This document shows positions 2,124-10,568 of a DNA stretch of 64,000 bases, in pieces. This DNA is from Candidatus Gottesmanbacteria bacterium RIFCSPHIGHO2_02_FULL_39_11 (GTDB taxonomy: Bacteria; Patescibacteriota; Microgenomatia; 2-02-FULL-39-11): the NCBI GenBank assembly GCA_001779195.1, contig MFJL01000019.1, forward strand, positions 27,192 through 91,191, given 5' to 3'. The position numbers were made by a program, and so were the translations under genes. Position 1 is the stretch's first letter, and the number at the start of each line of letters is the position of its first letter. The notes under the pieces were generated by a model. It made no database searches and was not told the origin of the DNA. It saw only the letters and a program-made list of their open reading frames with translations.

Positions 2124-3428
2124 ATGGAGCAACATCCGGTACCCAGAAATATCTCAGGATTCCAGTTTCGATTAATAGGGGATATGACCCTAAAACAGTT
2201 TGGGTATTTAGCCGGGGGAGCTCTAATCGGATATTTAATATACGCGGTTTTTCCGATTCCTCCTCTTTTTAAATATCCTCTTATTGCAGTCATTGTTTTA
2301 GGAGGAGTAGCATTGGCATTTCTGCCCATTCAGGACAGACCTTTGGATAAATGGCTTATTGCTTTTATCAAAAGCATAACAAGGCCTACTCAGTTTTTAT
2401 GGCAGAAATACGAAGAAGCTCCCGAGATTTTGACACGTCCCTATACGACCGCCCAACAACCGGTACAAGAAAAGCATGTTCAACTGCATCATGAAAGCAA
2501 CCTGAAGCTTAAAGCTTATCTTGCATCCCTTCCGCCAACTACACAACAGACGTATAATATTCACGAAAAACAGTATATTGATCAAACTCTTGCTCTTTTT
2601 GGTACTCCCGTTCCGATAATCCGAGTCCCTTCTCTTAATTCTTCAACGCCTAATCATCCTCACCAGGAGGAGAGCGTGAGACTTTCACAAGCACCTGCTC
2701 AAATTTTACCCAGTCAATCGATAAGAGTTGCCCCTCCGGTAATTCATCCGCCTCATATTCCGACGGTTATTCCAAGTCCTCCTGCGCAGCCGCCTCCCTC
2801 TATCCCGGTAACCTCATCTTCCCATCAAGCAACAGCTTCTGTTTTGGGAACGGTCAATAACTCAACCGATCCCAACACTGATGACAAGCTAAAACAGCTT
2901 CTTTCTGAAAAGGAAAATCTCGCACGGGAGCTTGAGATGCTTAAAAAGAAGATGGAGACCGAAAAAACAACCGTGGTTGTAAAGCCCCAATTTGCTCCGG
3001 ACATTGGGAATGAATCCACCGTCACAAAAGTTAAGGCTGAATCTGTTACTGATACCGTTGGAATACCGAGTCTTCCTCAAACTCCTAATATGGTTGTAGG
3101 TGTGGTTAAAGATCCAGGGAGGAAAATCCTGCCAAACATTATTATTACCATAAAAGATGCATTGGGTACCCCTGTCCGGGCACTTAAAACAAATAAGCTG
3201 GGTCAGTTTGCAATAGCCACTCCTCTTCAAAACGGAAATTACGTATTAGAATTTGAAGATCCCATGAAACGGTACATCTTTGAAAATGTACAAATTATTC
3301 TTAACGACACGCTTTTTATTCCGGTTGAGGTTTTAGCAAAAGGCCAAAGAGAAATTGTGCGTGAACAGCTTAATAAAGCAATATTTGGAGAATTAAATCC
3401 GGCACCTGCCCAAAACGGACTGATTTGA
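2124..3428 (+). CDS. PrgI-like (VirB3-like) T4SS membrane protein with a long C-terminal extension
   Basis: The N-terminal ~95 aa has the PrgI-family layout (FQFRLIGDMTLKQFGYLAGGALIGYL plus two TM helices). A Pro-rich linker, a coiled coil (KLKQLLSEKENLARELEMLKKKMETEK) and a C-terminal beta-sandwich-like domain follow. It lies directly upstream of VirB4. Confidence 0.55.
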   Translation: MEQHPVPRNISGFQFRLIGDMTLKQFGYLAGGALIGYLIYAVFPIPPLFKYPLIAVIVLGGVALAFLPIQDRPLDKWLIAFIKSITRPTQFLWQKYEEAPEILTRPYTTAQQPVQEKHVQLHHESNLKLKAYLASLPPTTQQTYNIHEKQYIDQTLALFGTPVPIIRVPSLNSSTPNHPHQEESVRLSQAPAQILPSQSIRVAPPVIHPPHIPTVIPSPPAQPPPSIPVTSSSHQATASVLGTVNNSTDPNTDDKLKQLLSEKENLARELEMLKKKMETEKTTVVVKPQFAPDIGNESTVTKVKAESVTDTVGIPSLPQTPNMVVGVVKDPGRKILPNIIITIKDALGTPVRALKTNKLGQFAIATPLQNGNYVLEFEDPMKRYIFENVQIILNDTLFIPVEVLAKGQREIVREQLNKAIFGELNPAPAQNGLI

Positions 3429-3496: not shown

Positions 3497-4186
3497 ATGG
3501 CATCACCTATCGGAACACCTATTCGCGCATCTACTCAGGATTTTTTGGATATTCAAACTATTTTAGATGATATTATTGTGCTTCGAGACGGATCTTGTGC
3601 AATAGCAATTGAGACAACTGCCGTAAATTTCGGTCTTCTTTCTGAAGAAGAACAGGACGCTCTAATTTATGCATATGCGGCTTTTTTAAATTCTCTCTCT
3701 TTTCCTCTTCAGATTGTCATCCTTTCAAAACGCATGGATATTTCTCTTTATATTGAGAGAATTACACGGGAAGAAGAGCGGCAGGTCGATGAAACAGTAA
3801 GACAGCGGCTCAAAAGATATAAAGAATTTATTATGTCCATTGTCAAAGAAAATAGAGTTCTTGAGAAAAAATTTTATCTGGTTATTTCGTTTTCAGCAGT
3901 TGAACTGGGAGTAAAAGGCGCTTTTCAAACAAATAGTCAAAAGAAAAAATTTCAGTTTTCCATGGATTACGTTTTATCGCGTGCAAAAACATCCCTCCTT
4001 CCCAAACGGGATCATGTACTAAGACAAATCGGAAGAATAGGACTTAAGGGAAGGCAACTTACCACACAGGAATTGGTTGAAATATTCTATAATATTTATA
4101 ACCCTACGTTAACCGGAGAAAAATTGGGAGATGTCGCAGGGTACGAAACTGCAATGGTTACTGGACAAGGAAAAAAATCATCATGA
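3497..4186 (+). CDS. VirB4/TraE-family T4SS ATPase, N-terminal domain (separate ORF; likely frameshifted from the next ORF)
   Basis: FLDIQTILDDIIVLRDGSCAIAIETTAVNFGLLSEEEQDALIYAYAAFLNSLSFPLQIV matches the conserved VirB4 N-terminal region. It overlaps the next ORF by 4 nt, ending in GQGKKSS just after an A7 run. Confidence 0.6.
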   Translation: MASPIGTPIRASTQDFLDIQTILDDIIVLRDGSCAIAIETTAVNFGLLSEEEQDALIYAYAAFLNSLSFPLQIVILSKRMDISLYIERITREEERQVDETVRQRLKRYKEFIMSIVKENRVLEKKFYLVISFSAVELGVKGAFQTNSQKKKFQFSMDYVLSRAKTSLLPKRDHVLRQIGRIGLKGRQLTTQELVEIFYNIYNPTLTGEKLGDVAGYETAMVTGQGKKSS

Positions 4187-6099
4187 ATTTCTCTTTTACA
4201 CCTAAAAAACAAAAACAATCAATTACCCCGGGAGAAGTTTCTAAAGTTGCAATCTCACCTAAAAATCCCGTCCCTGTGCCTGCCGGTGGTACGTCTAAAC
4301 TTGGTAGGGCAGGGGCTATTTCTCCGCAACTGAGAACTGAGGTAAATCATTATGTAAAGGGAACGGTAAATGTAAGAGATATTATCGCTCCCTCTTATGT
4401 AGAGGTAGACTTTGACAATATACGGGTTAACAATACGTATTATCGGACTCTTTTTGTCTCCGGATACCCGAGATATGTCTCTGCTAACTGGCTTCATCCG
4501 GTTCTTTCATTTGACCGGTCTCTTTTTATATCCATGTATATTTATCCTACAGAATCAAAAGTTATTTTAGAGGATCTTAAACGGAAAATCGCGGAGATGG
4601 AAGCAACCATTCAGGTGGATATGAAACGGGGGAAAGTAGTTGATCCCTCAGTCCAAGTAGCACTCGATGATGCTCTGAGCCTTCAGGCACAGCTTGCCAA
4701 AGGCGCTGAAAGATTTTACCAGTTCGGCCTATACGTCACCATTCCCTCCGAGGCAATTGATGATCTTAACCGAATGAGTAAGGAGGTTGAAGCAACTTTA
4801 GGTTCCCTCCTTATTATTCCTAAACACGCAACTCTTTCTCAGGAGGAAGGATTTAAATCAACTCTTCCTATGGGACTGGATAAGCTGGATGTAACCCGCA
4901 ATATGGACACTACGTCTCTTGCTACAACTTTTCCCTTTACCACAGCTTCACTTACTCAAAATGAAGGGATTTTGTATGGAATAAATGAACATGACGGGTC
5001 CCTGGTAATCTTTGACCGGTTTAGCCTCGAGAATTCAAACTCGGTTGTATTTGGAAAATCAGGAGGAGGAAAAAGCTTTCTGGTAAAACTTGAAACTATG
5101 AGACATCTTATGTTTGGAACAGAGGTTTTTGTCATTGATCCGGAAGGGGAATACACAGAGCTTACCAAAGTTATAGGAGGAGAGCTCATCAACTTCTCTT
5201 TTAATTCTCCCATTAAAATAAACCCTTTTGATTTATCCGGAGTTTATATAGAAGGAGAGAATGAGTTAGGACTTAAAATCCTTTCTCTGCATGCTCTGAT
5301 GCGGGTTATTATGGGAGATATTACTCCGGGAGAAGATGCGATTTTGGATCGGGCCCTAGTATTAACCTACAAACAAAAGGGGATTACTCCGGATCCGGGA
5401 ACTCAAAAAAACGAACCTCCTCTTATTGAGGATTTATATAAAGTTCTTATGGGAATGGAAGAAGATCACGCCAAATCCCTTGCTGAAAGGCTTGAAAAAT
5501 TTGTGAGGGGAAGTTTGGCTGGAATTTTTAATCAAAAATCAAATTTGGATCTGAAAAATCCTCTTACGGTTTTTAATGTTAAGGAGTTGGAAGCTGAGCT
5601 TCGACCGATTGCCATGTTTATAATTCTGGATCATATCTGGACAAAAATAAAAAAAACGATTAAAAAACGAATCATGGTTGTGGATGAGGCATGGTACCTG
5701 ATGAAACATCCTGATTCCGCAACTTTTCTTTATGGAATTGCTAAACGCGCCCGCAAGTACTACCTGGGGGTCACAACCATTACTCAGGATGTCGAAGATT
5801 TTCTATCAACAGATTACGGAAAAGCCATCATCACCAACTCATCTCTTCAAATTTTATTAAAACAGTCGCCGGCTGCAATTGAAAAACTCGCCCAGGTTTT
5901 TTACCTATCAGGAGGAGAAAAGCATTTTCTTCTTTCTGCAAATGTGGGAGAGGGACTTTTTTTTGCCGGCTCATCCCATGCCGCAATTCAAATTATTGCC
6001 TCTCCTGAAGAGTATCATTTGGCAACCTCAAAGCCTCAGGACATGGAAGATAAACCTCTTCCCATTTCCCATACCCCCGGACCCTCTCCTGCAGTATAA
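4183..6099 (+). CDS. VirB4/TraE/PrgJ-family T4SS ATPase (ATPase domain)
   Basis: Walker A is FGKSGGGKSF, Walker B is IMVVDEAWYLM, and the VirB4 C-terminal motifs are present. Confidence 0.85.
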   Translation: MNFSFTPKKQKQSITPGEVSKVAISPKNPVPVPAGGTSKLGRAGAISPQLRTEVNHYVKGTVNVRDIIAPSYVEVDFDNIRVNNTYYRTLFVSGYPRYVSANWLHPVLSFDRSLFISMYIYPTESKVILEDLKRKIAEMEATIQVDMKRGKVVDPSVQVALDDALSLQAQLAKGAERFYQFGLYVTIPSEAIDDLNRMSKEVEATLGSLLIIPKHATLSQEEGFKSTLPMGLDKLDVTRNMDTTSLATTFPFTTASLTQNEGILYGINEHDGSLVIFDRFSLENSNSVVFGKSGGGKSFLVKLETMRHLMFGTEVFVIDPEGEYTELTKVIGGELINFSFNSPIKINPFDLSGVYIEGENELGLKILSLHALMRVIMGDITPGEDAILDRALVLTYKQKGITPDPGTQKNEPPLIEDLYKVLMGMEEDHAKSLAERLEKFVRGSLAGIFNQKSNLDLKNPLTVFNVKELEAELRPIAMFIILDHIWTKIKKTIKKRIMVVDEAWYLMKHPDSATFLYGIAKRARKYYLGVTTITQDVEDFLSTDYGKAIITNSSLQILLKQSPAAIEKLAQVFYLSGGEKHFLLSANVGEGLFFAGSSHAAIQIIASPEEYHLATSKPQDMEDKPLPISHTPGPSPAV

Positions 6100-7835: not shown

Positions 7836-8945
7836 TTATCCTTGTACCCGTACCGGCATAATAATATGAAGAAATGTTGAAGCTGACTCACTTGACTTAA
7901 AGAGCCCCGGACTTAAGTTTCCGGATATTTCAAAAACTACATCTCCCTGTGGAAAATTATTAAGAAGATCAAGTAGAAACCGGTAATTAAAAGCAATTTC
8001 TGTCTCTTCTCCCTGAACATTTGCCTCCAAAACTTCCTCATCACCTCCAACCTGAGGAGTATTAGCAGAAAGAGTAATAGTATTTTTCCCAACTACTACT
8101 TTAACTACATTAGCAGACCCCCGGGCAAAAAGAGATGTGGTCTTAACTGCCTGAAGAAAATCATCTTTTTTTAATATCACTTTTGTTTTAAACCCTTGAG
8201 GAATAATTTTTTCAATAGTCGGAAATTCTCCATCTATAAGACGTGAGTAAATCCTCACTTGAGGAAGAGAAAAAACCACCTGATTTTTATCCTTTAATAT
8301 CGTAAATCCCACCTCATTAACTTTCATTTCCGTTGCAATCCGGCTTACTTCAGTTAAAGTAACCGCAGGAATTATACCTATAAAATCCTCGGAAAATTTA
8401 GGAATTGTGATTTTTTCAATAGAAAGCCGATATCCATCTGTTGAGGTTAAAGAAAAGGTGTCTCCTGTCGCAACAATGCGAACACCGGTTAATATAGGAC
8501 GGGCCTCATCTGTTGATGCGGCAAAAACCATCCGGGGAATAGCGGTCTTAATAACAGAGTAGGGGAGTCTTCGATCAAAAACTGTAACCTCGGGAAAGGG
8601 AGGGAAATCTTCAGGATTAGATGTTGCAAATGTGGCTTTTGTTTTCCCGCTTATAATTTTTAATTGTGTTGCCTCCTGAATAAACTCAAGTTTTTCCCCA
8701 TGAACACTTCCCACAAACTCACTAAGAATTTTTCCGGGTACTGTAATTTCTCCTTTTTCTTCAACTTTAACCGGAAGGGTAAAAACAATTCCAAGTTCCA
8801 GATCTGTTCCTGATAAAATAAGTTCTTTATCTGTTGCTTTTATAAGGATATTGGAGAGAATGGGAAGTTGAGCTCTTGTAGGAATACTTCTTCCGACAAT
8901 CCCCAGTGCTTTTAAAAATGATTCTTTCAAAACTACAAAATGCAT
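7836..8945 (-). CDS. dnaN: DNA polymerase III beta subunit (sliding clamp)
   Basis: At 369 aa it has the N-terminus MHFVVLKESFLKALGIVGRSIPTRAQLPILSNILIK typical of DnaN, and it sits directly downstream of dnaA. Confidence 0.93.
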   Translation of the reverse strand: MHFVVLKESFLKALGIVGRSIPTRAQLPILSNILIKATDKELILSGTDLELGIVFTLPVKVEEKGEITVPGKILSEFVGSVHGEKLEFIQEATQLKIISGKTKATFATSNPEDFPPFPEVTVFDRRLPYSVIKTAIPRMVFAASTDEARPILTGVRIVATGDTFSLTSTDGYRLSIEKITIPKFSEDFIGIIPAVTLTEVSRIATEMKVNEVGFTILKDKNQVVFSLPQVRIYSRLIDGEFPTIEKIIPQGFKTKVILKKDDFLQAVKTTSLFARGSANVVKVVVGKNTITLSANTPQVGGDEEVLEANVQGEETEIAFNYRFLLDLLNNFPQGDVVFEISGNLSPGLFKSSESASTFLHIIMPVRVQG

Positions 8946-9121: not shown

Positions 9122-10474
9122 TTATCCTACAAGCTTGCTTTTTATCCCCAAGATATCCTCTTGAATTTTTTGATCACTTTCAAGAAGTTTTCCGATTTTG
9201 CGGACTCCATGTAAAATGGTCGTGTGATCCCGTCCACCAAGAAGGGAACCTATATCCATAAGAGGAATTCTTGCTTCCTGTTTTAATAGATAGTAGATAA
9301 TCTGTCTGGGAAGGGCTATAGAACGGTCCCGTTTACTGCTTTTAATTTGAGAAAGTTTCAAATTGTAGTAAGAAAGGACGCAGTTTATAACATTTTGAGG
9401 AGATGTTTTTTGAGCCTCTTTCTGATCTTTTAAATCTGTTTTTAATAGTTTGGAAACAAGATCAATGGTTATAGGGGTATTATTAGTAAGTGCCTCTGCT
9501 GACAGGCGTGTAAGAACTCCCTCAAGTTTTCGAATATTGTCAACATTTGCGGCAATTAACTTGGCAACATCCATAGGAAGAATCATGGACCGTCTTTTCG
9601 CTTTAATAAGAAGTATGGCGGTTTTTAGCTCAAAATCAGGAGGAGCAATATCAATTATTAACCCTCCTTCAAAACGGGATCGCAGACGTGCTTCTAATTT
9701 TTCAATTTCCTCAGGAGGACGATCGGAAGTGAGGATAATTTGTCCTTTACCTTGTTGTACTGTATTAAATGTATGAAAGAATTCTTCCTGTACCGAGTTT
9801 TTCCCTGCGATAAATTGAATGTCATCTATAAAAAGAACATCTGCCCGACGGTATTTTTTTCTAAAATGAGGAGTTGTTTTTCCGCCAATTGCTTCAATAA
9901 TTTCGTTGGTAAACTGTTCCCCGGTACAATACATAATTTTTTTATGCTGTGAATTTGCAAATATCTGATGTCCGATTGCCTGCATAAGATGTGTTTTCCC
10001 AACACCTACTCCTCCGTATAAAAACAGGGGATTGTAGGAAGTTCCGGGGTTTTTAGCAACAGCGGTTGCTGCTGCGTATGCCATTTGATTAGATGAAGAA
10101 ACTGCAAACGTTTCAAACGTATACTCGGGATTAAACGGCAATTGCTCAGTAGGATAAGAGGAGGGGGCGTCATTAAAAGTGAGGAGAGGAAGGTCGTTTG
10201 GATTTTTTTTAATAACGGATGAAGGAGACGGTTCCATAGGAATAAAGGAAACAGAAACGGTTTCTTTTGTATACTCTTTAAGGCGAGTTGCAATTACTGT
10301 TGTATATTTTTTTTCTATGATAGATATCAAAATAGGTTTGTCGCATCCGATAATTGCCTTTTGGTGATCAAAAGAAAGAAGTTTGGTACTGGAAAAAAGA
10401 GTATGAAAAGAAGCCCGGGTTGAGGTGGTTTTTAAGTCCGCTAAAATAGTCTTCCATAAGATATCAACATCCAT
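9122..10474 (-). CDS. dnaA: Chromosomal replication initiator DnaA
   Basis: Walker A is GGVGVGKTHLMQAIG, with DDIQFIAGK, ILTSDRPPEEI and the C-terminal DNA-binding helix RQIIYYLLKQE. The ORF track starts at 10519, but the DnaA-like N-terminus MDVDILWKTIL begins at 10474 and a DnaA box sits just upstream. Confidence 0.93.
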   Translation of the reverse strand: MDVDILWKTILADLKTTSTRASFHTLFSSTKLLSFDHQKAIIGCDKPILISIIEKKYTTVIATRLKEYTKETVSVSFIPMEPSPSSVIKKNPNDLPLLTFNDAPSSYPTEQLPFNPEYTFETFAVSSSNQMAYAAATAVAKNPGTSYNPLFLYGGVGVGKTHLMQAIGHQIFANSQHKKIMYCTGEQFTNEIIEAIGGKTTPHFRKKYRRADVLFIDDIQFIAGKNSVQEEFFHTFNTVQQGKGQIILTSDRPPEEIEKLEARLRSRFEGGLIIDIAPPDFELKTAILLIKAKRRSMILPMDVAKLIAANVDNIRKLEGVLTRLSAEALTNNTPITIDLVSKLLKTDLKDQKEAQKTSPQNVINCVLSYYNLKLSQIKSSKRDRSIALPRQIIYYLLKQEARIPLMDIGSLLGGRDHTTILHGVRKIGKLLESDQKIQEDILGIKSKLVG

Positions 10475-10568
10475 AAGTGAGTTATCCACAATCCTAAAAT
10501 GACCGGACGTCAGCGTCAAGGGAGAGTTACTGGTACTAACTATATGAATATGGTAAAATCCATTTATT
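10475..10568. promoter_or_regulatory. Divergent dnaA/rpmH promoter region with a DnaA box
   Basis: TTATCCACA lies at 10483-10491, immediately upstream of the proposed dnaA start. Confidence 0.55.

Follow-up and report, generated by a model that had tools for sequence, protein, structure and literature searches.

An incidental A7 tract at the junction of two overlapping genes that together encode a VirB4 in a Gottesmanbacteria genome

RESULTS

Two overlapping ORFs and the homopolymer at their junction

The DNA analyzed here is a stretch of 64,000 nucleotides from a genome of the Gottesmanbacteria (hereafter, the window). A first-pass annotation made from its letters described a VirB4 gene split into two ORFs at a poly-A tract, and offered sequencing error, a programmed or phase-variable frameshift and a genuine two-subunit protein as explanations. 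The features to which we refer are the following.

2124..3428, + strand: gene for a PrgI/VirB3-like membrane protein of 434 aa (Pfam PF12666 PrgI, E 7.4e-10, above cut-off)
3497..4186, + strand: ORF1, 229 aa, ATG start and TGA stop (sequence reading); stand-alone TrsD/TraC-like protein, homologous to the first ~130-200 residues of full-length VirB4
4171..4177, + strand: run of seven A residues, A7 (sequence reading)
4183..4186, + strand: 4-nt ATGA overlap of the ORF1 TGA and the ORF2 ATG (sequence reading)
4183..6099, + strand: ORF2, 638 aa, ATG start (sequence reading); VirB4-family ATPase without the first ~170 profile positions
5053..5076, + strand: Walker A, GKSGGGKS, ORF2 residues 291-298 (motif search)
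5671..5688, + strand: Walker B, IMVVDE, ORF2 residues 497-502 (motif search)

Inspection of the sequence confirmed the two ORFs, their 4-nt overlap, the position of the A7 run and a downstream reading frame that, following a stop at 4099-4101, is open from 4102 onward. A stop and a start overlapping as ATGA is an arrangement typical of translational coupling, and any such overlap implies a -1 frame relation, as ORF2 has relative to ORF1. The 3' end of ORF1 reads GGA AAA AAA TCA TCA TGA and encodes the peptide GKKSS*; the A7 run is thus made up of the final A of the glycine codon GGA and two AAA lysine codons, and lies within the last five codons of ORF1, six nt before its stop.

The initial proposal that a slip of either +1 or -1 at this tract would fuse the ORFs into a protein of ~867 aa proved correct in one direction when edits of the tract were simulated. 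Addition of one A (A8), the counterpart of a -1 slip by the ribosome, creates an 867-aa fusion, in which the peptide across the hypothetical junction is ...GQGKKIIMNFSF..., and deletion of 2 nt also joins the ORFs, into 866 aa; removal of a single A (A6), by contrast, yields no fusion and ends in a stop after 235 aa. Neither element of the junction is rare in its surroundings: the window contains 117 A7 runs, about one per 550 nt, against 108 +/- 16 expected from shuffles, and six ATGA-type overlaps between ORFs of at least 100 aa, the ORF1/ORF2 overlap included. Nothing at this junction rises above chance or marks it as special.

ORF1 resembles the N-terminal portion of VirB4

Comparisons of ORF1 with NCBIfam profiles returned three matches, every one scoring under the curated cut-off of its model: VirB4_plasma over profile positions 104-234 (E 1.7e-9), TrsD/TraD (NF041427) over ORF1 residues 12-92 (33.2 bits, E 4.3e-8; cut-off 200 bits), and the CD1110 VirB4-like model over positions 2-124 of 752 (E 4.7e-5). 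On these sequence scores ORF1 is a remote homologue of TrsD/TraD and not a member of that family; as a small separate gene that directly precedes virB4 and shares homology with the VirB4 N-terminus, it has the properties of the TrsD/TraD-like functional class. The domain PF26593 (TraC-like) is present in the precomputed annotation of an identical protein (P0001) and of all 120 closest homologues; a local hmmscan of ORF1 against Pfam-A gave no match at E <= 0.1, to PF26593 or any other family.

Structural comparison pointed the same way. An AlphaFold model of ORF1, of moderate confidence (pLDDT 67, pTM 0.60), was compared with the PDB using Foldseek, and the top 14 matches were TrwK/VirB4 chains of plasmid R388, though these matches are weak (best E 2.9e-3, TM about 0.45); searching the PDB chains with the ORF1 sequence gave only chance-level matches (GST, PriL; E >= 0.1). 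The NCBIfam matches, the TrwK/VirB4 fold matches and the colinearity of an artificial fusion, described below, identify ORF1 as a homologue of the VirB4 N-terminus. All 120 of its closest homologues are 219-240 aa in length, and the ATPase part is absent from 149 of 150 representatives of the ORF1 family (50%-identity clusters).

ORF2 encodes the ATPase and the rest of the N-terminal domain

ORF2 passed the cut-off of a curated VirB4-type model, NCBIfam NF045971 (conju_CD1110), scoring 400.3 bits against a threshold of 325 over positions 172-730 of 752, and matched Pfam PF19044 (P-loop_TraG) at 104.5 bits against a cut-off of 25.8 (E 6.8e-30). Its domain content is of the P-loop_TraG/AAA_10/DUF87 type, residues 255-614 match the structure of a VirB4 C-terminal domain (PDB 4AG5, E 1.6e-44), and both Walker A and Walker B are present, so that score and motifs alike place it in the VirB4 family. 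The protein consists of a variable N-terminal segment of ~50 aa, the remainder of the VirB4 N-terminal domain, and the P-loop ATPase domain. A complete N-terminal domain is not contained in this single polypeptide, which begins at profile position 172, positions 2-124 being supplied by ORF1.

The original division of labor, with the N-terminal domain assigned to ORF1 and the ATPase domain to ORF2, therefore holds approximately, and needs correction in that ORF1 covers only CD1110 positions 2-124 and ORF2 all of 172-730. These alignments place the split within the N-terminal region of VirB4 and not at the boundary of its N-terminal domain with the ATPase. All 120 of the closest homologues of ORF2 are 571-745 aa in length.

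The two products are colinear with a fused VirB4

To relate the pair to an undivided protein, the artificial A8 fusion was aligned with a fused VirB4 of 942 aa from Ktedonobacteraceae. BLASTP returned one HSP, joining residues 14-850 of the fusion to 14-892 of the natural protein (E 2e-119), with an unaligned linker of similar length in each. Two predictions of the first-pass annotation were thereby confirmed, namely that insertion of a single A gives a colinear alignment to a full-length VirB4, and that ORF1 and ORF2 together make up one VirB4. Colinearity of this kind is what would be seen had a true A8 been misread as A7 and a single 867-aa gene broken artificially, and homopolymers are indeed error-prone; the comparisons of assemblies and orthologous loci that follow speak against that account, and the colinearity stems from the shared ancestry of split and fused forms and is no sign of a lesion in this genome.

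Among the closest known systems are the full-length VirB4 proteins of the CD1110 family and TrwK of R388. ORF1 and ORF2 are colinear with the full-length form and cover CD1110 positions 2-124 and 172-730, the ATPase domain matches 4AG5, and the ORF1 model matches TrwK chains; the difference is that here the protein is divided within a variable linker of the N-terminal domain and is translated as two separate products.

The junction is reproducible and its homopolymer is not conserved

The A7 tract and ATGA junction were identical in six contigs of 99.3-100% identity that come from different ENA/Logan assemblies or runs, some of which may share read sets. Recurrence of A7 in six assemblies from different samples or runs argues against a sequencing or assembly indel. 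It also counts against another explanation, in which the poly-A tract acts as a phase-variation switch that turns VirB4 on and off or alters its form: some host-associated bacteria have well-known contingency loci in homopolymers where two genes meet, yet tract length was invariant here (A7 in 6/6 assemblies).

The nearest relative, locus L036, has 81% nucleotide identity over the locus and retains the GKKSS* terminus, the TGA and the ATGA; its junction reads GGA AAG AAG TCA TCA TGA, synonymous changes having broken the A run. Substitutions relative to L036 across 4097-4186 fall mostly at third-codon positions of ORF1, which indicates that ORF1 is the selected frame up to its stop. Both the C-terminus of ORF1 and the N-terminal peptide of ORF2 are conserved as protein, which counts against a sequencing or assembly indel.

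A scan of GTDB species genomes identified 35 related loci, 34 of which have both parts. Thirty-three are patescibacterial-type two-gene loci, from Gottesmanbacteria, Microgenomates, other Patescibacteria and Saccharibacteria, and the only fused locus is the one from Ktedonobacteraceae (L035). Without exception, the patescibacterial-type loci (33/33) end gene 1 with a stop codon and begin gene 2 with an ATG at this stop or close by, and share the N-terminal domain over two polypeptides. The junction is ATGA in 22 of the 33 and of a TAAnnATG type in the rest. The frame relation is usually -1, with +1 in L014, L016 and L017 and 0 in L007, where two in-frame stops (TAA TAA) intervene. The stretch of open ORF2 frame upstream of the ATG ranges from a few to about 100 nt, and the Gottesmanbacteria-type junctions (L001-L009 and L034) contain no run of six or more A/T or five or more G/C. 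No common slippage mechanism could serve these loci.

Every patescibacterial orthologue examined shows the same split without a homopolymer, including those in the +1 or 0 frame with in-frame stops, and with the independent assemblies and L036 this leaves sequencing error as an exceedingly improbable account. The surmise of a genuine two-subunit VirB4 was upheld on the terms first set for it, A7 recurring in independent assemblies and the orthologues being two-gene loci with intact starts and stops.

Programmed frameshifting and other alternatives

A more specific alternative is that ribosomes are programmed to shift by -1, or transcription slips, at A_AAA_AAA, so that a fused VirB4 is made beside the two separate products. 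The heptamer at 4171-4177 has the phase that a -1 slip requires of a slippery site, no stop interrupts the -1 frame between 4102 and the end of ORF2, and the resulting fusion would be colinear with VirB4. These features recall established -1 sites (E. coli dnaX, A_AAA_AAG, and transposases of the IS3 family), with which the locus shares an in-phase A-rich heptamer a few codons before the 0-frame stop and an open -1 frame. It differs from them in that the heptamer is unconserved, no stimulatory structure lies downstream, and the downstream ORF possesses a conserved start codon. Synonymous changes have removed the slippery run in L036, L001-L009 and L034 lack it, and the frame is +1 or 0 in L007, L014, L016 and L017, so that neither the site nor the frame relation is conserved among orthologues; in several relatives the -1 frame leaves a window of just 4-16 nt ahead of the stop. 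The 93 nt following the A7 contain no stimulatory RNA structure (MFE -6.9 kcal/mol, z = -0.25 relative to shuffles), a run of seven A residues is short for efficient transcriptional slippage, and A7 tracts occur in the window at chance frequency. With an unconserved site, varied frames, no structure downstream and a chance-level tract, we consider a programmed frameshift very unlikely. A weaker version, in which low-level -1 slippage in this strain gives a minor 867-aa fused TrsD-VirB4 beside the separate subunits, as a strain-specific by-product that is not selected, has a slim chance of being correct.

The phase-variation account fares no better on closer reading of the junction. The tract falls within the final five codons of ORF1, a separate and conserved ATG starts ORF2, and the tract is unconserved among orthologues; in the simulations A6 alters only the tail of ORF1 and A8 fuses the genes, neither representing an off state. 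Given this outcome and the lack of tract polymorphism in six assemblies, the probability of such a switch is negligible.

Recent pseudogenization, whereby a once-intact VirB4 is decaying in this genome, would accord with the accumulation of broken genes in reduced genomes. Against it, neither ORF is truncated, and both have hundreds of homologues of matching length at 65-100% identity; Walker A and B are undamaged, the arrangement is found across the phylum and on plasmids of Firmicutes, and homologous genes are reported to be essential in a cultivated relative (PMC12102498). We attach almost no weight to decay as an explanation.

Gene neighborhood

The PrgI-like protein encoded upstream of ORF1 carries its PrgI domain at residues 5-90, followed by a long C-terminal extension. 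Its gene is the first of a conserved trio, PrgI, TrsD-like and VirB4, in an order repeated in orthologous loci and in plasmids of Firmicutes; finished examples of the latter (Brevibacillus, Clostridium perfringens and C. botulinum) encode PrgI, a TrsD-like protein of 257-332 aa and an ATPase of ~620-640 aa. In the window the trio is followed by an unknown ORF of 521 aa, then by dnaN and dnaA on the opposite strand. Further upstream lie several small + strand ORFs (235-2114), whose translations have the look of non-coding frames, a ClpB-like gene being located opposite them on the - strand; the three that were scanned (456-644, 699-887 and 1905-2114) matched no Pfam family.

DISCUSSION

The data establish two separately terminated and separately initiated genes, under purifying selection, that together cover a complete VirB4 with its ATPase motifs intact. 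The best explanation, which we hold to be correct with high confidence, is that this is a native two-gene VirB4, consisting of separate TrsD/TraC-like and ATPase genes with their own conserved starts and stops, the A7 between them being incidental. The tract is a pair of AAA lysine codons that happen to adjoin another A; it is neither a mistake in the sequence, nor a site of programmed slippage, nor a tract for phase variation.

In this reading gene 1 (3497-4186) encodes a stand-alone protein corresponding to the N-terminal module of full-length VirB4, and gene 2 (4183-6099) supplies the remaining N-terminal domain and the hexameric P-loop ATPase. The order of the genes and their ATGA overlap suggest that translation of the two is probably coupled, and the same gene order, considered with what is known of full-length VirB4, suggests that the two polypeptides probably associate, without a covalent link, to form an equivalent of the full-length protein. 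In R388 structures the N-terminal domain of full-length VirB4 contacts VirB3. By analogy, the TrsD-like module probably takes part in contacting the PrgI/VirB3-like membrane protein, whose gene lies directly upstream.

The arrangement itself is ordinary, and is already documented for Patescibacteria and for some Gram-positive plasmids. According to published work, TrsD has remote homology to the VirB4 N-terminal portion and is the commonest component of type IV secretion systems (T4SS) in Patescibacteria, with 2,272 homologues, 1,664 of them associated with virB4; the same study, published in 2025, reported the PrgI-TrsD-VirB4 arrangement beside dnaA/dnaN in Patescibacteria, T4SS loci near dnaA/dnaN in Microgenomatia, and a TrsD homologue essential in Ca. 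Southlakia epibionticum ML1 (PMC12102498, Microb Genom 2025). Our locus is an instance of that chromosomal system and differs from it in no substantive way, having the same phylum (Gottesmanbacteria within Microgenomatia), gene order, proximity to dnaN/dnaA and separate TrsD-like gene, with a PrgI-like protein that is unusually long at 434 aa. Our search of the literature on "split VirB4" found nothing more specific than this report, and in the main text of Guglielmini et al. 2014 (PMC4027160) the pGO1 profiles appear but the word TrsD does not.

The trio of PrgI, TrsD-like protein and ATPase is also the arrangement of Gram-positive conjugation systems of the pGO1 type. In TrsD/TrsE of the Staphylococcus plasmids pGO1/pSK41 and TraD/TraE of pIP501, representing the pGO1 subclass of MPF-FATA, a small, remote homologue of the VirB4 N-terminus likewise lies directly upstream of a VirB4-type ATPase of ~650 aa. 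ORF1, at 33 bits against a cut-off of 200, is a distant relative of these TrsD/TraD proteins. The plasmid systems are moreover conjugative and possess a relaxase and a coupling protein, whereas the patescibacterial system is chromosomal, and most patescibacterial clusters are reported to lack a relaxase (PMC12102498).

That Patescibacteria keep an origin-proximal T4SS of Gram-positive type, homologous components of which are reported to be essential to a cultivated relative in its epibiotic lifestyle, has thus been published, and the present locus adds no new information on the role of the detached N-terminal module of VirB4 (TrsD). Its main value concerns annotation, for pipelines or readers may flag, or "repair", the junction as that of a frameshifted or pseudogenized VirB4, where one gene for a TrsD/TraC-like protein and another for a VirB4 ATPase should be annotated. 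With respect to the second of these, many of the 120 closest homologues of ORF2 have a recurring N-terminal motif of the MxxxFF type, which favors the ATG at 4183 over the shorter, 589-aa start given in the NCBI record.

Start codon of the ATPase gene

In the public NCBI record the VirB4-family ATPase encoded by ORF2 is 589 residues long (P0123), its start being placed 49 codons downstream of the ATG at 4183 (4183-4329). Judged from sequence comparison, the longer 638-residue product initiated at ATG 4183 is the favoured prediction, because an MxxxFF-type N-terminal motif recurs among the 120 closest ORF2 homologues and the ATG at the ORF1 stop is conserved.

The ORF1 family and its C-terminal ends

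Among 150 representatives of the ORF1 family (P0241-P0390), a single protein, P0301 (787 aa), combines TrsD-like and VirB4 regions in one chain, with 45% identity to ORF1, 62% identity to ORF2 and most of the linker deleted; it may be either a genuine re-fusion or an artefact of assembly. Two motifs recur as C-terminal ends in this set, one PPxPEI-like (26 of 150) and the other FVVEEL-like (19 representatives), a recurrence suggesting that these ends may serve as short linear docking motifs. The more distant TrsD/TraC-like homologues of the family often extend past a conserved YTTPLV-like motif in a low-complexity tail rich in P, T, Q and S, which can reach ~500 aa; ORF1 of the window (3497-4186) carries no tail of this kind. 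The two Pfam results for ORF1 disagree: our hmmscan against local Pfam-A returned no family at E <= 0.1, whereas an identical protein is listed under PF26593 (TraC-like) in the precomputed annotation of the collection.

Flanking genes and chromosomal setting

Features flanking ORF1 and virB4 in the window
2124-3428, +, PrgI/VirB3-like protein, 434 aa
6109-7674, +, 521-aa ORF directly 3' of virB4
7836-8945, -, dnaN
9122-10519, -, dnaA
11557-12378, +, yidC

The T4SS genes are directly followed by dnaN, dnaA and yidC, which places the locus beside the probable replication origin, in agreement with the placement reported for Microgenomatia T4SS (PMC12102498). The 521-aa ORF, which could be a divergent T4SS component, has no Pfam match; it contains Pro/Ser-rich segments and a single hydrophobic stretch near its C-terminus, and a gene of 514 aa is kept in the same position in the nearest-relative locus, L036. 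The PrgI/VirB3-like protein comprises 434 aa, in contrast to the ~100 aa of its counterparts in Firmicutes plasmids. Its PrgI domain is confined to residues 5-90 and is followed by a Pro-rich linker and then a coiled-coil-like stretch, and residues 324-382 weakly match a CarboxypepD_reg / SdrD_B-like beta-sandwich.
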